DNA of 61,899 bases, filler included, from Globobulimina sp. (Eukaryota), in NCBI GenBank assembly GCA_003354225.1. It is 23 parts of 23 records of this genome, joined end to end, with 100 filler letters (N's around TTAATTAATTAA, not from the genome) between each part and the next. Parts side by side here need not be neighbours in the genome. Positions count along the whole stretch, not along the records: positions 5,397 to 7,994 come from PIVH01005809.1; 22 more parts are not named here. One strand, 5' to 3'. The notes under the pieces were generated by a model. That model was given only the letters and a program-made list of their open reading frames with translations. It was not told the DNA's origin and searched no databases. How positions within the stretch are numbered: the stretch's first letter is position 1; every line of letters starts with the position of its first letter. Positions 4,181 through 61,899 of this stretch are shown in pieces. A program made the translations under genes and the position numbers.

Positions 4181-5740
4181 ATTATAAATCTTCTCTTCCA
4201 AATGCTATTTCTAACAAATTAAGGGTACAAAAAAAACAATTATTCTGTGAAACAAAAAAAATGATTGAGACGTATTGTTAAAAAAAAATGTTATTTCAAT
4301 GGATCGTTTTTAAATGAATAACAATGTTGGCTGACTTGGATGAGATGACATGTATAACAGACTAAACTGATGAAAAATGTTTTAGTTGGAACAATGGCAC
4401 TTTCTGTCGAGCTGTCTGTAAACAATCTATATATGATCTATAAGTTGCTGATTATATTATGTACATCTAACACAACTTCAAAATGTAAATTTCCAAATTC
4501 AAATTTAAAATTGTAGTATTTCTTTCAAACATCACAAAAGGAGTCGCAATAAAAATTACATACGGAAAGGATATATTAAACAAATGTATTAATACAAGAA
4601 AAAAGTAAACGAAAAATGCTACATTTAGAAATAGCTAGTCCTGTTCCATTTGAATTTGATATTGTGAAATGTCCGCTATTTTACGCTTATTAAATTTTAA
4701 TTAGTGAAATGCTGTCACCCAATCTGTTTATATTAAATTTTAATTAGTGAATGTTTTGTGTTATGTATTGATTGGTTATGTTTTATATATTGTGATTGAT
4801 TGTGTTGACGTTAATTTACTTCAAATTCAAATTAAACCATCACAATAATCATCACAATAACCATCACAACAATAATAACAGCAATAACCCCTATAACAGC
4901 CACAACATCAGCAACAACAAAAACTATTAGTGAATTATTTGATTTATTTAGTGGCTCCACGCAGCAAACAAGAAATCCCAGAAAAAGGCAATTGCATCAA
5001 ATATCACAAAGTCCTGCTTCTAAAAAAAGGGAAATAAGTTATGTCAACAATACATTACATAAACAAAACAAAAATATAGAAATTAAATCAATGGAAGGAA
5101 ATGACGATTGTGATGACTAGAAACGGGAAATGAGGATAAAAATGGAACACAAACGGAAACAAATTATATTACTGTAAATAATACAAATGAAGCAAATGAT
5201 ATATCAGATCGGAGTGATTTTGATAAATATAAAAATGTTGGAAATAATGATGTAATTAAAAAATTGGAGATAACAATCAAAAAAACACCAAATGTTNNNN
5301 NNNNNNNNNNNNNNNNNNNNNNNNNNNNNNNNNNNNNNNNTTAATTAATTAANNNNNNNNNNNNNNNNNNNNNNNNNNNNNNNNNNNNNNNNNNNNATCA
5401 TACGACGTAGCAAAATAAGCAAATGCCACAAATTCATCCATAAATTAATTATATGAATAAGGTGCTATGTACACACCGTCTGTCATCATACGACGTAGCA
5501 AATGCTACAAATTCACCCATAAATAAATACAGTTATTAATCCATATGATATTAAATGCCGACTATTGTGTTTGTAACATTTATATCAATCAACTTATACA
5601 AAATAAAAGTATATACCTACAACTTATGCATAGCACAGATACTCAGAAAGCACGCCATGGACGACACAAACACATGTTATTGTTGAGAGCTAAAGATGTT
5701 TAGTGGTGACTTAAAAACTTACATACTGCACAATTTTCTT

Positions 5741-6162
5741 TATTTGTGTGGCTTTTATGTGGTTATTGCGCCACGGACTGAACGTGTAATTATTACTGAG
5801 AGGTTGGCATAGTGGTCGGCCTCCTGGATAGATATTTTTATTACATTATTTGTGTGGCTTTTATGTGGTTATTGCGCCACTCTTTGAACGTGCAATTATT
5901 ACTGAGGGGTTGGCATAGTGGTCGACTTCATGGATTATATTATTTATCACATTAATTGTGTGGCTTTTATGTGGTTATCGCCACGGACTGAACGTGTAAT
6001 TATTACTGAGGGGTTGGCATAGTTGTCAGCCTCATGGATTGTATTATTGATTAGATTATTTCTGTGGCTTTTACGTGGTTATTGCCCCACAGTTTGAACG
6101 TGCAATTTTTACTGAGAGGTTGGCATACTGCTCGGCCTCATGGATTATATTATTTATTATAT
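5741..6162. repeat. Four tandem ~106-bp repeats downstream of the USP ORF
   Basis: The unit TATTTGTGTGGCTTTTATGTGGTTATTGCGCCAC...TGAACGTGYAATTATTACTGAGRGGTTGGCATAGTGGTCGGCCTCATGGAT starts at about 5741, 5847, 5953 and 6057. Confidence 0.95.
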
Positions 6163-6176
6163 TTAATGTACACATT

Positions 6177-7925
6177 TTAGTATGGAAAAATATGGCCTGT
6201 GTCAATAGGATCAACCTGAACACCAGTAAATAATGATGGATTATTTGATATGTTGGCTTGACAATATCCCAAAATATATGCTCTCCCAGAAAACATAAAC
6301 TGATAAAAATCATTACCTGCTTTAGAAATATGTTGATCATTACAAACAAAACATCCATTTGGCTCTCTGATAAAACATACAAAATGACCTCCTGCTCTTG
6401 TGTCATTGTATGGTGCCGGCTGTCCTGTATCATCAAATTGTTGAATGTTACCATCGCCAGTATGCACAATCACAAATTTTAATTCATATTTATTTGGTCC
6501 GTTTGATGCATAATGAGGATATTTATCGTTTAAAACACCACAAATACCATCAGCTTTATACACCAAATAATTTAAATTCAATTCATTTGGAAATGAAATA
6601 TATTTACAATCTTTTGTATACGAAATTTGATTGGGGTTTTGTGCTGAATATGCCATTTTAAACCGTTTCATACGGATCATTAATATATACGGTAGTGATA
6701 TAATACATTCATTGAATGTGTAATTAACTCGTTGTTCTGCAGAAGTTATATTTCCATGTTCATCTCGACTGAATTCTGGAATATCTTTATATGTATCATG
6801 ATCCCGTATAAAATGTAATAAATTCTGCTCCAAGTTATCAAATTCAATATCAACATCAATATTTGGTTTATTTTGAGGGGTGAAAATAGCATTAAACACA
6901 GATCTAAGCGGTTTGTTTTTACGATGAAAATATTCTTTTGATTTATTGATGAATGTTATAGCATCCTGTGCAGTAAATCCAAGAGAAATTAATTGCTGAC
7001 ATGGAATATTTTTCCAACTGCTAACATCATGATAATCAGCAGAATTCAAAGCATTTTCATAGGAACTAAGGTTCCATTCATTCAATATATTTATTGGTAT
7101 TGCACATCCTGACAAAACTCCATCTAACTCAATGTTGAACAATGCATTCCAGTTAAACTTTCGAGAAATATCAGTGCTTTCCCATTCATCACCTTCTGTT
7201 TGTAAAAAATTGCAGAAATTATTAACATAAAAATCCCAACAGTCTTCTGCATCTGCTATTACATCACCGTTATTATCATTATTTTTACTGTTTAAACATG
7301 CTGCAATATTTAGATTTGTAACAGTTGGTTGTACTGTAACAGAACCATTATTGCGCATTGATGTGATCATGCTTTGAAACAAGTTGCCAATTTGATATGA
7401 TAGACAATTTAGAGCAAAATGATGATAAACATTAATATATCCATCTCTCAATGGTTTAATACATGCCAAGCTTTGTAATATTGCATTAAGATAACAAGAA
7501 TTATGTGGATTTAAAATTCCGATTGGTGTGTAGTATCTGTTATCATTTGTACATACTGGCGGCACTGTATTTGTACATACTGGCATAGGAACAGTGCGAT
7601 TAATTATTGTTGATGAGATATTATTCATATGGGCACATCTAATATTTAAGTTATCAATGATGGTTGGCATCTTTATGTTATTAAGATTATATTGCCTTTG
7701 TAATCCAAGAGGATTCCTGTTTCTTCTCCGAAACATATTAAGTAGCTTTAAAGCTACTCGCAATGCAATTGGAAATAACCATTTATCTCTAATCCAAGGT
7801 TGATCAAATATTTTAAATTTTTGTTTAATCTGCGAAAATGATCTCTCAATCAAACCTCGATCCGTATTAAATTGTTTGTTCCAATCTCTTTTTTCAGTAC
7901 AACCATTAAAAATAGAATTTATATA
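6177..7925 (-). CDS. Ubiquitin-specific protease (peptidase C19) with an N-terminal segment resembling a DDE_Tnp_4 (PIF/Harbinger/IS5-like) transposase C-terminus; intronless, 5' end broken
   Basis: Cys box GILNPHNSCYLNAILQSL, DAED motif, LPYILMIRMKRF and His box YELKFVIVHTG...GGHFVCFIR...CNDQHIS. The frame stays open upstream of the listed ORF as EKRDWNKQFNTDRGLIERSFSQIKQKFKIF. Confidence 0.8.
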   Translation of the reverse strand, partial: YINSIFNGCTEKRDWNKQFNTDRGLIERSFSQIKQKFKIFDQPWIRDKWLFPIALRVALKLLNMFRRRNRNPLGLQRQYNLNNIKMPTIIDNLNIRCAHMNNISSTIINRTVPMPVCTNTVPPVCTNDNRYYTPIGILNPHNSCYLNAILQSLACIKPLRDGYINVYHHFALNCLSYQIGNLFQSMITSMRNNGSVTVQPTVTNLNIAACLNSKNNDNNGDVIADAEDCWDFYVNNFCNFLQTEGDEWESTDISRKFNWNALFNIELDGVLSGCAIPINILNEWNLSSYENALNSADYHDVSSWKNIPCQQLISLGFTAQDAITFINKSKEYFHRKNKPLRSVFNAIFTPQNKPNIDVDIEFDNLEQNLLHFIRDHDTYKDIPEFSRDEHGNITSAEQRVNYTFNECIISLPYILMIRMKRFKMAYSAQNPNQISYTKDCKYISFPNELNLNYLVYKADGICGVLNDKYPHYASNGPNKYELKFVIVHTGDGNIQQFDDTGQPAPYNDTRAGGHFVCFIREPNGCFVCNDQHISKAGNDFYQFMFSGRAYILGYCQANISNNPSLFTGVQVDPIDTGHIFPY

Positions 7926-8609
7926 TCACAATAATATAAGGCTACTGGAATCTTTGTACATAACATAATTTATGTTATATTGATATATTATGTANNNNNN
8001 NNNNNNNNNNNNNNNNNNNNNNNNNNNNNNNNNNNNNNTTAATTAATTAANNNNNNNNNNNNNNNNNNNNNNNNNNNNNNNNNNNNNNNNNNNNCCAAAT
8101 ATGAATGAAATAATAATTATTGCATCTATATTTTGTACATTTAATATTTATAATTTATTATCAATTATTAATTCAGCAATATTACCAAAAACATTTGATC
8201 GAATAATAATTAAAGGTGTAGGTGGTTGGTTAGAGAGTGTATTTTCAGATGAAATGCGTTGTAAATTTGTTGAGAGCAATTTTTTTGTTGAGTTAAGAAA
8301 ACATGAATACGAACACGAATTAATAATTTATAAAACTAAATAGTTATTATCAATTTTGCACATTATAATTTAACGGAATAACCCACTTTTAAATTTTCTT
8401 TTTTTTACCATGTATACATTTTAGTACTTATATTTATTTTATCCGCTTCTACTTTTTCATTTTCATTGCTTATTTTTTGATTTTTGTGTCTGTGAAATGC
8501 TCCTACTTGTTTGAGCTGTTTTTAATATCTTTAAATTTTTGTTTGATTATTTTTTGTCTGCTTTGAAAAAAAATACTTTAGTTAAACTAAGAAATAAAAA
8601 TCAAAAATC

Positions 8610-10791: not shown

Positions 10792-12242
10792 ATCAAACAT
10801 TGCTTCGAATGGATAATATTGCTGCGTATTATTGACAAGAAAATATAAATCAAACGCAATGGTTACAACTTGGTGCGCTACCAATGGCGTAAATGTCTGA
10901 TACATATATTCATTTTTATTAAACAATCCATGCATCCATACTCCAGCAGATATCTCCTGTTTTGCGACATTATTCCATGCAGTATACTGTTCATCAAACA
11001 GCTCATTCGATTCGCACCATACACGCGGTATGTCCCAATACCCAGAACAAGCCTTGACATCAATGTGCTTGATACGATATCCATCACCGTTGTTATAGCC
11101 CTGTACTGCAAAGGCAATGTTTGAATTGGGAGTAAACGCACCATCAATGGCACATAAATAGGAGCTTTCTTCTGCATAATCCGCGTAATGTACACGTATA
11201 TTTAGATAGGATTTCTGTCCAACTTCGTCATTACGAAAGCGAATTCGTACTTTGCCATCAGCCATGCCGCCATGGTTGCCATTCCTATCAAAGCCCCAAC
11301 CAAAGGATTGCGTCCATCTGGTCGCATTTTGACCACTCATTACATTGGCAATGTCGTCTGTATATATTAAATGAAATATAGTGCGAGGATATAAATTAAA
11401 ATTAACCACTTCTCCATACCGTTAGTCAATGTGACTCCGGATGATGCGAGCGAGTGACTGCACGAATAAGCACTCGGAGCAGCACCATATGAGATAGCGA
11501 ACTTCGAATCGGTCATTTTAACAGCAATGTATTTCGAATGTTGGTCATAAATATAAATAACCGGCGCTGCCTTTGCAGTGATACCAAGTGCTGGATTGTA
11601 ACATAGTGTATCACCGCAAGCATACTCCAATTCGAACCACGTGATACTGTTATCTGTGAACACCATTTGCGTCTCGTACGTGAATAGGAATTGTATGGCA
11701 TTGGCTGTGGGCAATATCTTTAACATAATGATTTCAGGGTCGTTGTCATCGATTAGTTTGGAGATATGTTGACGCGGATATACGTAGGTCCAATCCCGCC
11801 AGAATGTGTGTGCAGAAACGCATTCGTGAGCTATGAATGTGGGGAACGATGTGGGCGAATTGGTCGGTGCGTTTGTAGGCGATGTGGTGGGTGAGTTTGT
11901 AGGTATGTCTGTGGGTGAATAGGTGGGTGAAGTGGTGGGTGCCTTTGTCGGTGGTGTGGTAGGTGCCTTTGTAGGAGGTGTGGTGGGACTTTTGCTGGGG
12001 GCATTGGTTGGTGATGGGGTCGCATTTGTGGGTGCATCTGTTGGGGAGAATGTAGGTGCAGGCGATGGCATGTCAGTGGGTGCTGGTGATGGCTGAGATG
12101 TAGGTGCTGGGGTTGGTATATCTGTGGGCGCAGTGGTAGGTGCAGGTGATGGAAGGAATGTGGGTGATTTGGTTGGAGATTTACTTGATGCGGATGGCGG
12201 TGTCTGTATATGTGTGCTTGTTGTGGATGGATATACGATCAT
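10792..12242 (-). CDS. PT-repeat (mucin-like) surface protein with beta-rich extracellular domains, 3'-partial; intron 11358-11419
   Basis: Long PTxxPT tract (11840-12180); a GTATGG...TATACAG intron joins ORFs 11367-12242 and 10744-11409. Confidence 0.75.
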
Positions 12243-12530
12243 GAAAGGGGCAAATGTTAATTAACTGTTTGTGCATTGATAGGAGCGATTAAGTCTGGAT
12301 TATGTGGTGTTTTTGTGCGTGCATGACTTTGAAATGGACGAAAAGGGAATTAACTCGTTGATAAGATGGTAAAACATAATGCTAGCGTAATGAAATTATG
12401 TAAGAACATATTCGTTTGTTGTTGTAAAATAAAAACGCTTAATTCAAGAAGCAGCCATCTAAACAAAGAAACTAAGAAAAAACGTTTTTACACTCTTTTA
12501 TTTACGAAATCAAAATAAGTGAATTCAATT

Positions 12531-29665: not shown

Positions 29666-32001
29666 ATAAACACATAACAACAGAATATTATGTCTAGCTT
29701 TGCCACTGTGACAGAGTCAAATCCAGAACAATCGATAACGACATCAGGTTATTCGTTAAACACTGAATATCATTATACTTTGTATCAAACGCAAAGAAGG
29801 TTAACAGTTACATTTGGTGGAGATTATGTGTATGATGATATCTATAATTATAGTGGCGGCACTGGTGAAGTAACAGGCGTTGCTGCATCGCATCCCATTG
29901 TAATGAATCAGGCCATTAATTTAGGCAGTATTTGGGCGGATGAGTTTGATGCTACAATAAGAAATTTAGTGGTTACTACAGCAAATTCACCTGAAACAAC
30001 ATTCTGGTATTTATTTTTTTATTTTTTATAAAATACATATTAATTCATAACTTATATTGTTGTAAGGAATTACATCTGCGATTGGGACGACAGATGGACG
30101 ACACGTAGTGGTGGCGACTGGGTGTGGGGAGGGATTGGTATTGGAATTGATGGAGATTGCAGTGTCCGACAGTCGTATACAGGAACCCCGACTACCTGGG
30201 CCTGGATTGGAGAGAAAGATCCAGACTCATTGCTGTGGACCGACTATAAAATAGAAATGATCATAAATTTAATGTAAATTCAGTACCGCAACCTATGTGA
30301 TGTGGATAACTAGTTTAATAACACAAACATATGTGATGTGATGTGATGTTATGTGAATATTAAACTAGTCGTCGTATCTGTTATTTTCATATATGTTGTG
30401 GTATTGTTATAAGATCTGGAGCTTCTGTTGGACCTCTTTTCCGTGCAACGAATGTCGATTGTGGTGTGAATGCGTGTGGTAACGCTTACATTCTCAGACT
30501 GAAGCCCAGCGGATATGAGTTTGGTAAGTTTGATGTCAGTCATATTATTCTATACAAACATTCAATGGGAGCAGGAGCACATTCCTTGGGTACACCGTAT
30601 TTAGTCCGTGTCGAATGTGTTGGAAATACATTCAAAATTTATGAAGACAATAAATATTTATTTAATTATTCAGATGCTAGTTATGCCGTTGGATCTGTTG
30701 GCATTAGAACGGCTTCCAGTGATGCCAGAATATCTAAAGTGCGTATTACGTTTCCGCAGAATCAACAAAGGTACACTGCCGATCCATCAGCAGCACCCAC
30801 ATTTATGCCTACGTCAGTACCAACCAAAACACCAACTATTTTCCCAACAACATTACCAACAAAATCACCAACATTTGAACCTACATTTATACCCACATCA
30901 ATCCCATCACTACAAACCAAAGCACCTACAAATCCAACTAATTCCCCAACAAAATCACCAACAACTTCTATGCCAACAACTTCTGAGCCAACAACTTCTG
31001 TGCCCACAACTTCTGTGCCAACAACTTCTGTGCCAACCAAATATCCATCCACGTCACCAAGTAAATCACCAACTAATTTACCAACAACATCACCAACATT
31101 CGCAAAACAAGAACAAGAACAAAGAGAAACCACAATATATTCCGCAGGGAACGATTATGAAAGTAACATTGGTGCAAATCAAAAAGGTAGTAATTATGGT
31201 CTGTATATTGCAGTGATTATTATTGTTATATTTTTGGCATTTTGTGGAATTTCTGCATTATTTTTTTATAAATTTTGGAAGAAAAAACAAATAAATATCG
31301 CAATGATTTTAAAGGATCGGGTTTCGAGTATGAGTAATGTCGAAATAGTAAATGTAAAAAGTAGCGGAGATGATGGCGTTGTTATTGCGGATATTAATGA
31401 AACATATTTGGATATTATGGATAATTCGGGAGATAATAATGATAGTGATTTGGTGGGAATTATTAATAAAACAGATATGGGAATGATTAATATGAGTGAT
31501 GCAGTGGATAATGACAATGATGTCTTAGAAATGGTGAATAAAACAAATATTGGAATTATGGATAATTTATATGGTGATGATGTGGTTGAAACTGATGGTG
31601 GATATATTGATGATTTTGTGATTGAAGATTCATCAGAAAATCAAACAAATGGAAATCCGATTACAAAAGTTGACTTTGGCGAAAATAATTTTATTATTCA
31701 TGATTTTGCAGCAAAACAAATAATTTATACTGAGTCAGGTATTTTGGCTGAACATGCGGAGAATGATTATGATATTAATGAGGATGGAGCAAAAGCGATT
31801 AATTTGTGGTTGGATTCAATTGGATTGCTTAGATATTATGATATGTTTATTCAAAATGGTTTTGATTCACTGGAAATGATACAGGAAATAAATAATGAGA
31901 ATGATTTGAATAGGATTGGTATTACATTGCTTGCGCATCGATTAAAAATTATAAATCACATCGAAAAAATTGACATTAATTCATTAATTTTATTTTCATA
32001 A
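29666..32001 (+). CDS. Receptor-like type I membrane protein: concanavalin/DUF1080-like ectodomains, PT stalk, TM helix and cytoplasmic SAM domain; multi-exon, 5'-partial
   Basis: YLVRVECVGNTFKIYED...GSVGIRT; PT repeats; TM LYIAVIIIVIFLAFCGISALFFY; SAM motif WLDSIGLLRYYDMFIQNGFDSLEMI...IGITLLAHRLKI. Confidence 0.8.
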
Positions 32002-53920: not shown

Positions 53921-56513
53921 AATACTAATTATAATACAAATTTCAATCCAAATGATAATTACAATGCTTATAATAACCGATATCGAGGCAGGGGTATAAG
54001 AGGGAGAGGAAGAGGAAGAGGCAGAGGAAGAGGAAGAGGCAGAGGAAGAGGCACTGACAGAGGCCGAGGCCGAGGCAGAGGTGGATATAATAACAATTTC
54101 AACCAAACCAGAAACAACTACAATGATAATAATTATAATAATTATAATAACAGATCACGGGGAAGAGGTAGAAGCAGAGGAAGAGGGAGAGGCAGAGGAA
54201 GAGGCAGAGCAGCACACAGAGGGAGGGGTAGAGCGCGAGGAAGATATCACAATAACAACAATTTTAATTCTAAACCGTATAACGCCGATAAAACAGACAA
54301 TAAATCGTGGAAACAGTTAACTATTTTACCGTACAGATGGCAACGCAAACAGCCGCAAGATGATGATAAGCAGGACCCGTATCAGCAAGAAGGCAAAGTG
54401 CAAATAACCAATGATGCAGCGGTCGAAGTTGACGGTGAATGGATATGGTGCAGTCATTCTGAATCAGTGCAATATGAACAAGAATTTAACTCTGATAACA
54501 AAACATTGCCACATAAATTCGAAGCACTTGGCTTATTTCGAAGAATGATAAGATTCGAAGGCAATGTCATTAAAATCATACCACGAAAAACAATGGGTTT
54601 TGTGCAACCGAATTATCCCCAACAAAATGACGCCATTGGTATTGCATTTTATTATGGCGATTTTACCGAGGAACGTATAAATGCAACCAATCCATTGAGA
54701 AAGGGACATAAATTACAATATTCATTGCAGTTTCACAGTACTCCCAAACCAGGCTATCGAGCGGTTGATATTAAGATTATATCGCGAGAGGTGTCTGGCT
54801 CGCCTTCCCTGTCCGTTACATCTGCCCAATCCATGCCCAATATGTCTGAATTGAATGTAGGAGCTCCTTCTCCTCATTTTGCACCGGGACATGGTGCAGC
54901 AAGTGCATCGACAATGAAATTAGAAAGATATGTTGATCGAGTTCAAGAAATAAACATATCTAAACAGCGGGGATTGATTTGGTGTACAACATTAAATACG
55001 TTGATTGAATTTGATTTGGCTGCATGCACTGAGATGGATATTGAGAAAGATTGTTATGTTGAATATTGCGTAGAAAATGCAAAAGCGACGAGGGTTACAT
55101 TGGTGATTTTGGATTACAAATGGAAAGAATTTGAAAATAGCAATAAGCGGTGGAACAAATGTTCATATCAACAATGTGTTGATTATGAAAATATGTATAA
55201 CCAAAATCATTTGAGTATTGAGAGTGAACTAAATTTGAATGGGAAACGTTTAAAGAGATATACTGTTTAGTTAATATGTACTTATTTGGACACACAACAC
55301 AAACAACATAAACACAAAGAGGTTTCAAGGGAAAGTTAAGCGATTTAATGCAGACAAAAGGATGGGATATGTTCAATATGGAGTTAAATATAGTGTGATT
55401 TTTGAAGCAGATGAATGTGATTTTAATACAGCATTTTTGTGTGAAAATGACATGATTTCGTATGAAATTGATCGGGATGAAGATGTGTACGGTGTGCCTA
55501 CTGTGAAATGTATAAACGTTAAGTTTCTGCCCATTCGGTATTTGTGGCGAGAAAAAGCGATAAATGGTACTGATGAATGGAGGAATTGTTCAGTTCAAAA
55601 ATCAAAACAATTAGAAAACAAATATTATCAACGTTGGAAGCAAAATAAAAATAAAGACATCTGTGAACATGCGAGTAATACAAAATATTCACGAACTGTA
55701 ATGTTCATTGGACAAATATCAAAATGTAAAGGCACGATTCAATTCGATTTAGACGATGAATATAAAAATATTGTGGTTGGCTTTGATGCGGAAGAATGCA
55801 AAAATCAGTCATTTAACGAGAATGCGGAAATACAATTTAAATTAGTCAACACAGAGCAGGGTGTTTGCAAAGCTGTGGATTTATCAAAACCAGGCGAATG
55901 CAAAAGGAAATGTGGCATAATTACACGCATTGATAAGAGCAAAAAAGTGGGTTATCTCAAATGCAATGATGACAACAAGGAATATACGTTTTGGTTTTCA
56001 GAATGTAATAACAACGTTAATCCCATGTATATACCGAAAGGTACGCGGATTGAATATGAATTGAGATATTTCACAAAGCCGCAGCCGGCGTATAACGCAA
56101 CAAAGATTTGTTTGTATCTATTGCCGTACCAATGGGTGACATATGATGATGCGAATAAAATGTGGAGACCACAGACCATTGATACATCGATATTATTTGA
56201 AAAAACATTCAATTCGTCGTCAAAAATAAATGATTTGCAATTGAAAATTGGCGAAAATATTCGGGTGCGGAAATTTCAAAGAAAAATAAAAGAATTAAAA
56301 AATAATGGCGGTTTAGTTGAGATCAGCTATAACGACGAAATTAAAAATGCCTGCATTTATTTTGATTTTAGAGAGTTACAGTTTGATGCCAAATATTTAC
56401 AAAATGGAGATGAAATTATTTATGAATTGAAAAAAGAAAACTATCCAAGACCACAATGGAAAGCTGTTAATATTCAGTTTGCAAATATTATACCATTGTT
56501 AAATTATTTTTCT
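53921..56513 (+). CDS. RG/RGG-rich protein with multiple cold-shock (OB) domains interspersed with WWE-like segments; intron 55265-55319; partial at both ends
   Basis: The frame is open from 53921 (N/Y-rich, two RG tracts). CSD motifs are FEGNVIKIIPRKTMGFV, FQGKVKRFNADKRMGYV and CGIITRIDKSKKVGYL. Four YxW...W..C/Y....E..Y/F segments are interspersed. Confidence 0.75.
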
Positions 56514-59648: not shown

Positions 59649-61899
59649 ATGTCGACGATTGAAGTTTTAAATGATAAACTGTTAGAATTTGGCGACTGGG
59701 TAAGCAATTTATCACAACTCGATAATAACACCATTCGAGAGTATCAACATGAGATTAAATTAAAAGGAAGGAATTTTGTTAAATTCCATGCGGAGGTTAA
59801 AGTGTTGAATGATGAGCAATTAATCACAAAATTCAAACAATTAATGCAACGGTTTAAGACTGTTAAAGCAATATCAAATGGAAGAGAACCGCCGACAGCT
59901 CCGACTCCAATGGAAGATGATAAAAAATCACAGGTTTCACATATATAATTTATAATTTATATATTAATTTTTCTTTTTGTCAGTCACCGCAACCAAAAGA
60001 TAATGACAATAAAAACACCGACTCATCAAAGTCATGTATTATGGGCAAAGATTGCAACGACAATGACCCCAAACATTTTTATGATTTTATACATTTTGAC
60101 CATCCCAAATCTGACGAAATGGTCAGAAAATATGAAAAATTCTTAAAAAAACAAAAATGTCAGCAAATATATGATACGCACACCAAAAATAAAACTAATC
60201 TTTCATCAGAATTTGGTGAATTTCTCTCCGATCAGGAACTAGCTCAGCAATTGCAAGCTATGCAAGATATGGAAATAGATAACACAGACAACACAGATAC
60301 AAATACAAAGAAAAGAGTACGGAGAAAAAAACAAATAATAATCTATAAAGACGATGACTTGGATGAAAATAAAGAAAGCAGTTCTGAAGAAGACAACGAT
60401 TCGGATGAAGACTTTGATGAAACCGAAGTACGCCGAACCTATCGGAGAAAGATAAAAAACAAAAAAAAAGAAAACCAACGACGCAAATTGCTGGAAGACA
60501 CAATGGACACTCACGAATTAGAAAGATTGCGAGCGGAGCGATTAAATAAATTATTAGCAAAAACCGAATCTTATATGAAAACCTTAACGCGGAGAGTCAG
60601 GAAAAACTTCAAACAAAACACAAATAACAACAACAACACAAACAACAAAAAAGCAGCGGATTTATCAGCCACTGAAGTACGCTCTTTTTTAACTGGCGAT
60701 TCCGGTAAAAACGAAGCCATCCAACAAACCAAAAGTTTGATTGGTGGCACACTTAAAGATTATCAACAAATTGGCTTGAAATGGATGGTGACCCTCAATC
60801 AAATGCGGCTGAATGGCATATTAGCGGATGAGATGGGGTATGTTATCGCTGTTTGTTTAACAGTTTATTGTATCTATTTATATACAGATTGGGTAAAACC
60901 GTGCAAGTGATGGCTTTGTTGGCTTATTTGCTCGACAACGAAGGAACGCGCGGCAAGCATTTAATCGTCGCGCCACTGTCCACTTTATCTTCGTGGCGCG
61001 ACCATTTTGCCGCATGGCTGCCCGCATTAAATGTCTATTTACACCGCGGTGTGGCCTCCGAACGCAGAGAGCAATTAATCGCCATCAATAAGGAGCAGAG
61101 TGACACAGACATTGTAATATCAACCTATCAAATGGTGATCCGCGACGCGGAGACTATGAGTAACATAAAATGGTGCTATTTGGTCGTGGATGAGGCGCAT
61201 ACCTTAAAAAATTCGAAAGGTCGTTTGTTTGAGTCATTAAATGCTTTTTCAACGCGGCATCGCTTATTATTGACCGGCACGCCGTTGCAAAATAATTTGA
61301 ATGAATTGTGGAGTTTATTGAACTTTATATTGCCGGCCGTGTTTGACTCTGCTCAGTCGTTTGACAGTTGGTTCTGTTCTCCTTTTCAGCATTTGCATAC
61401 TAAGAAGGATAAAAGTAATAAATCTCTGAGCGACATAGCCATGTCAGACAGCGAGAGGTTGATGGTAATGGACCGTCTGCATCGTGCTATTGATCCTTTT
61501 TTATTGCGCCGGATGAAGAAAAATGTGTTGCCAGACATGGTGAAGAAAAAAGAAATTGTCATTAAAGTGGCCATCAGCGGCTTACAGACCGCCATTTATC
61601 AACAACTGCAAAAATACGGCGCGTTGAAGTACAAACTTGATAAAAAAAGACATGCTTTCAATAATATTATGATGCAGCTACGCAAATGTGCCAATCATCC
61701 ATATTTATTCTATCCTCATCATACCAGCAACGATGAAGGCGATGGCTATGATATCGATGAGGAAATCTATCGATGCAGCGGCAAGTTTGTATTATTGAGA
61801 CATCTGATTCCCAAAATGAAACGATTTGGCCATAGAATCTTAATCTTTTGTCAATTTGTGCAGACTATGGATATTTTAGGGGAATTCTTCGATTTTATG
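59649..61899 (+). CDS. SNF2: Snf2/Brahma-type chromatin-remodelling ATPase with an N-terminal PBZ-like zinc finger; introns 59934-59983 and 60838-60887; 3'-partial
   Basis: RLNKLLAKTESY (post-HSA), GGTLKDYQQIGLKWMV, NGILADEMGLGKT, VVDEAH, LTGTPLQNNLNELWSLLNF, FDSWFCSPF, MQLRKCANHPYLF, SGKF. Confidence 0.9.

Follow-up and report, generated by a model that had tools for sequence, protein, structure and literature searches.

A PIF/Harbinger-Type Transposase C-Terminus in Frame with a Ubiquitin-Specific Protease on a Globobulimina Contig

In one of the closest described counterparts of the protein considered here, XP_001314237.1 of Trichomonas vaginalis, a pfam01609 transposase and a Peptidase C19 domain occur together, as noted by Bao, Kapitonov and Jurka (2010, PMC2836005), who cite Gladyshev and Arkhipova (2009). 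The pfam01609 family is of the IS5 type and is the presumed source of PIF/Harbinger. In a stretch of 61,899 bases from the Globobulimina sp. assembly GCA_003354225.1 (the window), the C-terminus of a DDE_Tnp_4 transposase is found in the same reading frame as a C19 protease, a ubiquitin-specific protease (USP), on the minus strand of a 2598-bp contig at positions 5397..7994. This contig probably, although not securely, represents the 3′ part of a gene derived from a PIF/Harbinger-type (IS5-related, DDE_Tnp_4) transposase fused in frame to a USP. In addition to the transposase, PIF/Harbinger elements typically encode a Myb/SANT-like DNA-binding protein in a separate gene.

The T. vaginalis protein, as described in PMC2836005, resembles the window protein in that an IS5-type DDE transposase and a C19 protease occur in a single protist protein. 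The two can be compared by description only, and their host lineages differ, the USP of the window being nearest to foraminiferal transcripts. Of the transposase, no more than the final quarter is seen in the window copy. The original prediction had presented the locus as a candidate new type of transposon and was unaware of any C19 fusion in this transposase family. Both statements give way to the precedents, namely the IS5-type transposase with Peptidase C19 that is mentioned for T. vaginalis in PMC2836005 and the UCH domain of HLE2 elements in PMC11417382. In the literature searched, no Harbinger or DDE_Tnp_4 fusion to a USP is described beyond these two papers, nor are transposons of this type in foraminifera. 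A transposase–USP fusion in the IS5/PIF-Harbinger lineage is therefore rare and is not a new kind of protein; the present case differs in its host lineage and in its distinctive USP clade.

Proteases of other types are carried by other elements. PMC2836005 lists OTU or Ulp1 proteases in Ginger1, Ulp1 in Mutator-like elements, and OTU in Helitrons, in many cases C-terminal to the transposase, and its authors suggest that the ubiquitin pathway takes part in transposition or repair. UCH is among the domains that are stably included in Helitron-like HLE2 elements (HELIANO, PMC11417382) and is apparently one of the 17 of 20 added domains that occur in open reading frames (ORFs) other than that of RepHel. 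All four groups share with the window the pairing of a DNA transposon with a cysteine protease of the ubiquitin/SUMO system. The proteases of Ginger1, Mutator-like elements, and Helitrons belong to the OTU and Ulp1 clans, whereas that of the window is C19, and the transposase of HLE2 is RepHel.

Anatomy of the reading frame

The frame is open from stop to stop at 6177..7925 on the minus strand and comprises 582 codons followed by a TAA stop (6177-6179); it is the fifth-longest open frame of the window. An in-frame TGA lies immediately upstream (7926..7928, minus strand). From its N-terminal side, the frame encodes the C-terminus of a DDE_Tnp_4 (PIF/Harbinger-type) transposase of approximately 70 residues (7686..7895, minus strand), a linker of approximately 50 residues with no family match and low model confidence (7524..7685, minus strand), and a USP/peptidase C19 domain (6264..7523, minus strand).

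The transposase tail alone (the first 55-88 residues) matches Pfam DDE_Tnp_4 (PF13359) with E values of 0.0064-0.018 and scores of 15.1-16.6 bits over profile positions 106-137 of 158. The comparison with PF13359 by HMMER, which had been proposed as a check, thus returns matches, and these fall below the curated cut-off of 24.8 bits. The ORF was also used as the query in a phmmer search of 1.84 billion representatives at E <= 0.001, which gave 26 matches. Nine of these cover only ORF residues 6-83, the best being P0003 (E 7.9e-18, 61% identity). All nine tail-only relatives match PF13359 at E <= 0.01 and eight are at or above the cut-off; DDE_Tnp_1 (PF01609) is also matched by three of them (P0003, P0013, and P0018). 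When a profile was built from the nine relatives with the window left out, the tail scored 95.5 bits at positions 210-280 of 285.

The nine residues that are invariant in the family (N, R, E, F, W, R, L, K, and N) are all kept in the tail. They include the Glu of the IER motif (Glu27, codon 7845..7847, minus strand), which is invariant in the family alignment and corresponds to the catalytic Glu that completes the DDE triad. The C-terminal PLGLxRQY end of the family is likewise kept in the alignment, and the tail contains no stop and no frameshift over 71 codons. A mean identity of 52.9% is found between the window and the nine relatives over 66 tail columns, compared with 47.4% among the relatives themselves; the tail is therefore not decayed. 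Judged from its sequence, the N-terminal segment is a genuine DDE_Tnp_4/PIF-Harbinger-type transposase C-terminus with the catalytic Glu. It had been described in advance as an apparent DDE transposase fused in frame to the USP, with the remark that the DDE_Tnp_4 family ends in an F/WN...R..IER-type motif; the frame reads as quoted, and the observation holds. The only member of the DDE triad on the contig is Glu27, and profile positions 1-209 have no counterpart there in any frame. By homology, then, the segment is a fragment of DDE_Tnp_4, and the whole domain is absent from the contig.

The protease domain is matched by Pfam UCH (PF00443) with an E value of 1e-21 and a score of 78.1 bits (cut-off 23.9 bits), at residues 135-554 and over profile positions 1-254 of 254. 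In the Cys box NSC144YLNAILQ, Cys144 (codon 7494..7496, minus strand) is aligned to the corresponding cysteine in the Cys box of USP46. His514 of the GGHF His box (6384..6386, minus strand) and Asp530 of the CND motif (N529-D530; Asp530 codon 6336..6338, minus strand), the predicted third member of the USP triad, are invariant in all eight aligned members of the clade. The mean pLDDT (predicted local distance difference test) of the AlphaFold2 model is 55.1, with values of 70-84 for the core blocks and low confidence outside the core; a long insertion at about residues 255-400 is poorly modelled. The best matches listed when this model was searched with Foldseek are all USPs (USP46, USP12, USP7, Ubp8, and USP2), with E values of 5e-9 to 2e-7. 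The top match is 5cvn_B, with an E value of 4.9e-9 and a TM (template modeling) score of 0.59 by target. By phmmer, an E value of 1e-4 is obtained against USP46. USP46/USP12, USP7, and Ubp8 are the best matches of the window protease in both sequence and fold, at only 12-17% identity, and unlike the window protein they have no transposase segment. The domain is a complete USP/C19 domain with an intact Cys-His-Asp triad, as had been anticipated for its Cys, His, and Asn/Asp motifs.

The junction between the two parts is covered by reads. Run X1 is the only public run found with this stretch and contains 93% of the sampled words of the fusion contig; no RNA run with the stretch was listed. A joint-free contig of 1943 nt derived from the reads of run X1 is identical to the window over 5981-7923 and spans the tail, the linker, and the USP. 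The reads of run X1 are possibly the same as the source reads of the window, and the assembly is then not fully independent. The fusion is real at the DNA level and well supported.

The position of the junction suggests how it was formed. Stand-alone transposase relatives end, as predicted, 5-12 residues past GLxRQY. The window frame continues past this usual end as QYNLNNIK-MPTIIDNLNI, and Met86 (7668-7670, minus strand), the second ATG of the frame, lies one or two codons beyond it. The tail relative P0007 continues, after an insertion of 14 residues, into MPDLIKNCNI, which resembles MPTIIDNLNI in a weak BLASTP match. Since the USP part begins at Met86, right where the transposase relatives end, joining by loss of a stop codon is proposed: a USP reading frame just behind the transposase would have become attached to it in this way. 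The fused USP would then be brought to the site of transposition by the transposase and, by analogy, might deubiquitinate the transposase there, or else factors of chromatin or repair. This role is put forward because of the anatomy of the gene and the published suggestions for OTU and Ulp1 proteases in Ginger1, Mutator-like, and Helitron elements.

Relatives of the tail and of the protease

Among the tail-only relatives, the metagenomic proteins P0003, P0018, and P0013 (289, 339, and 223 residues, respectively) show 47-67% identity with the tail across 66 columns (P0003, 67%) and have the same invariant residues and the same PLGLxRQY end. Unlike the window protein, they end approximately 5-12 residues past GLxRQY as predicted and have no USP.

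The USP part of the ORF is matched by 17 of the 26 phmmer hits, and Pfam UCH is found in 16 of these 17. The origins of 20 of the 26 hits were looked up. The closest relatives of the USP are proteins from foraminiferal transcriptomes: P0001 (39% identity), P0002 (52%), P0009, and P0014 are from Bolivina argentea, and P0005 and P0019 are from Nonionella stella. The remaining hits that were looked up are from short contigs. The clade is marked by motifs that are atypical of cellular USPs, namely LNxN-LVY, NDKYPHY, GPYKY, GGHYxC, and YFGG..AYILGY. Basic KRRK-like tails that resemble nuclear localization signals are present on P0006, P0009, P0012, and P0021; the window protein is without one and ends just before a tandem repeat. 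A search of the Atlas with the ORF gave USP clusters only, with scores of approximately 0.8, some of them from giant viruses; these are leads only.

The fusion is also supported by P0006, a metagenomic protein of 1120 residues from a 7944-nt contig in the European Nucleotide Archive (ENA), in which a complete DDE_Tnp_4 domain and a USP of this clade occur together. The transposase domain is found at residues 268-435 (E 1.8e-10) with the motifs VDCT, GDRAY, and VERCY. It is followed by a spacer of approximately 300 residues and then by UCH at residues 732-1052. The USPs of P0006 and the window align by BLASTP with an E value of 2e-23 over 448 columns. The order of the domains is the same in both proteins, and LNMNHLV, NDKYPHY, GGHY, and YFGG..AYI are shared. 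P0006 differs from the window protein in its complete D, D, and E residues, in the length of the segment ahead of the USP (approximately 300 residues with a Cys/His-rich stretch versus approximately 50 residues in the window), in its basic KRRK tail, and in a transposase that lies outside the tail family. The frame of the window, with no stop over 582 codons, supports the fusion as well.

Three further members of the USP clade have long or unusual N-terminal parts. P0011 (1647 residues, 7183-nt contig) has approximately 1200 residues ahead of its USP, and P0001 and P0016 have Cys-rich heads. The front parts of these three proteins match no Pfam family at E <= 0.01 and nothing in the Atlas, and the only matches to PDB sequences fall within the USP. 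P0011 may be another mobile-element protein that bears this USP module.

Other searches for copies of the ORF or its relatives gave negative results. The ORF and four Met-started versions of it are absent from the protein collection by exact look-up. No homologue was returned by a word-based search with the ORF at near lengths, and the same type of search with the whole of P0006 returned only P0006 itself. Scans of metagenome, genome, and viral contigs with the USP and transposase alignments produced pattern matches, none of which was confirmed by tblastn. Elsewhere in the window, none of the 22 remaining contigs carries a relative of either the transposase or the USP.

The upstream boundary and the competing accounts

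Several observations weigh against the favored reading, a gene that arose by in-frame fusion of a transposase to a USP. Most of them concern the 5′ side. The homology to the transposase has a sharp boundary at 7895, nine codons downstream of the in-frame TGA at 7926-7928. In the relatives, whose first Asp motif is xDGxDF, the second Asp motif (GADGGY) precedes the WNK motif by approximately 29 residues, and a colinear gene would therefore place the second Asp approximately 87 nt upstream, at about 7960-7980, inside the contig. Neither this motif nor any profile position below 210 was found in the 100 nt upstream, in three frames and three spliced forms. The first in-frame ATG, Met64 (7734..7736, minus strand), lies within the tail, so that the tail has the TGA upstream of it and no Met before Met64. 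Candidate in-frame GT-AG introns that span the TGA are 42, 60, and 72 nt in length and have weak 5′ sites. An intron hiding the rest of the transposase would need to exceed 100 nt, compared with 50 nt for the sole intron verified in the window, which served as the yardstick for intron size. The original prediction had attributed the absence of both Asp motifs to an in-frame TGA near 7928 and to the contig end; the TGA is confirmed, and the contig end is not alone in hiding the motifs, as the second Asp is missing from a region that the contig includes.

The three candidate introns were not adopted, as their removal adds no transposase homology in the profile search. A likeness by eye of YIIYQYNINY and KDSSS upstream of the TGA to GYxxTxHINV and ADGGY, respectively, is likewise unsupported by the profile search.

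The copy number and the relatives of the locus also count against such a gene. The depth in run X1 is 8.9 for the gene contig and 8.4 for the unique flank. In the assembly of this run, no paralogue of at least 80% likeness over the USP part is longer than approximately 40 nt; the pieces found elsewhere are of approximately 36-40 nt and less than 90% likeness and match the USP part only. With equal depth and no close paralogue, the locus therefore looks low-copy and unlike a recently active family. Both domains occur together in only 1 of the 26 phmmer hits, P0006, and the transposase of this protein does not match the profile of the tail family (E 0.7). Longer members of the transposase family were not found in a word-based alignment search, which is weak evidence. 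The N-terminal parts of P0001, P0016, and P0011 are not recognisable transposases. The proposal that a transposon captured a deubiquitinase therefore stands in part: the fused tail, the intact USP, and P0006 agree with it, and the absence of the DDE core from the contig and of any paralogue at the 80% level does not. The suggestion made with it, that the protease might counter host silencing or degradation, stays hypothetical.

From the in-frame TGA, the lack of an early Met, and the lack of upstream homology, it follows that this copy is either spliced or truncated at its 5′ end. If it is spliced, the intron would end at one of the first two AG dinucleotides 3′ of the TGA (7889-7888 and 7887-7886, within 7886..7889 on the minus strand), which would be the sole possible 3′ splice sites for translating the tail from an upstream exon, and the earlier exons would be located outside the contig, at a distance of over 100 nt. 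If it is truncated, a USP protein from Met64 or Met86 would be the sole product. The contig assembled from reads terminates at 7923, just two bases before reaching the TGA, and hardly any reads cover 7920-7994; within the fusion contig, the approximately 70 nt ahead of the frame are thus the least well supported. On this side the fusion contig extends 69 nt past the frame. Its inverted repeats are short and internal, and neither terminal inverted repeats nor a 3-bp (TWA) target duplication is visible on its 2.6 kb.

An unlikely, yet serious, account of these facts is that the locus is a 5′-truncated remnant in which the transposase tail is dead and untranslated and a stand-alone USP, possibly of a host gene or of a domesticated gene that persists from an earlier fusion or insertion, is made from Met64 or Met86. 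The TGA and the missing Met, the abrupt end of the homology at 7895 with no second Asp where a colinear gene would have it, and the single-copy-like depth without close paralogues all fit a truncated copy, as does the position of Met86 just past the end of the transposase relatives and the lack of a recognisable transposase in other members of the USP clade. The state of the tail speaks against its being dead: it is as conserved as true members of the family, keeps all invariant residues, and runs for 71 codons without a stop or frameshift, although a recent truncation would also account for an undecayed tail. The tail is also in frame with the USP. At the stop frequency of the window itself (0.0565 per codon), the chance of 63 open codons before the first Met is p ~0.026, to be multiplied by 1/3 for the frame. 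The existence of P0006, a full fusion of the same USP clade with DDE_Tnp_4, is a further point against a remnant.

A quite improbable account is that a host USP gene lies by chance downstream of an unrelated transposon fragment and that the shared frame is accidental. A single locus is visible, and a USP is shown in none of the nine relatives of the tail family, as would fit such a coincidence. Against it, approximately 130 codons are open and in frame ahead of the USP domain, for which the chance is p ~5e-4, and P0006 joins the same USP clade to DDE_Tnp_4 while P0007 hints at the same continuation. That the assembly has joined a transposon read to a USP gene is highly improbable, for although the assembly is very fragmented (2.6-kb contigs) and the read-derived contig breaks off just before the poorly covered end, that single contig runs through 5981-7923 with neither difference nor joint.

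The in-frame fusion of a PIF/Harbinger-type transposase to a USP, which we favor, could be part of a wider pattern. In a more speculative proposal, about which we are doubtful, this protist USP clade, with its foraminifera-like hosts, would be a portable C-terminal module that was acquired repeatedly by unrelated mobile-element proteins, and the gene of the window would be live and spliced, with a protease that deubiquitinates the transposase or local chromatin in the course of cut-and-paste transposition. The acquisitions tentatively counted under this proposal would be those by two distant DDE_Tnp_4 lineages (the window and P0006), by P0011, and by the Cys-rich, DNA-binding-like heads of P0001 and P0016.

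Genomic setting and significance

The window consists of 23 contigs of 2593-2598 bases in order of descending length and represents several loci rather than one. The contigs are joined by 22 six-frame stop linkers, each made of 44 N, TTAATTAATTAA, and 44 N, and features are not readable across the joints. The fusion contig, the third in the window, is bounded by such N/TTAATTAATTAA/N linkers and has a G+C content of 32%. Eukaryotic genes are present on further contigs. A GT-AG intron of 50 nt (GTATGT...ATACAG) is located at 60838-60887 in a gene for an SNF2-type helicase, and its removal restores the DEMG-LGKTVQ motif. These features mark the source as an AT-rich eukaryote whose introns are short. 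Pro/Thr/Ser-rich repeats (SPTxxPT) occur in long frames at 11367-12260 and 30364-32001 on other contigs, and a frame at 53921-54300 contains long Arg-Gly repeats and Asn-rich runs; proteins of such low complexity are typical for AT-rich protists.

The 780 nt downstream of the frame contain a tandem repeat and no long frame. Four copies of a 106-bp unit (85% matches) are found at 5740..6163, with no strand assigned, beginning 14 nt past the stop codon of the USP. The depth of one part of this repeat is 65.6 in the read-derived contigs, compared with 8.9 for the gene, and a diverged copy is present on another contig; the unit is therefore repeated elsewhere in the genome. Within the window, none of the remaining 22 contigs contains it. 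An origin of the repeat from a tRNA is unsupported, as it matches neither a tRNA nor an Rfam family; the fusion contig as a whole likewise contains no tRNA and no Rfam family.

Proteases of the ubiquitin/SUMO system are carried by several superfamilies of DNA transposons, and their role for the element is not established. With the rear quarter of a transposase at one low-copy locus, the window provides a lead for mining foraminiferal genomes rather than a defined new element. If the proposed fusion is correct, a Harbinger-type transposase–USP in a rhizarian-like protist would be an independent case of a transposon-borne protease. The window protein and P0006 would then form a natural pair of fusions with which to test whether deubiquitination protects the transposase or manages the repair of excision sites.

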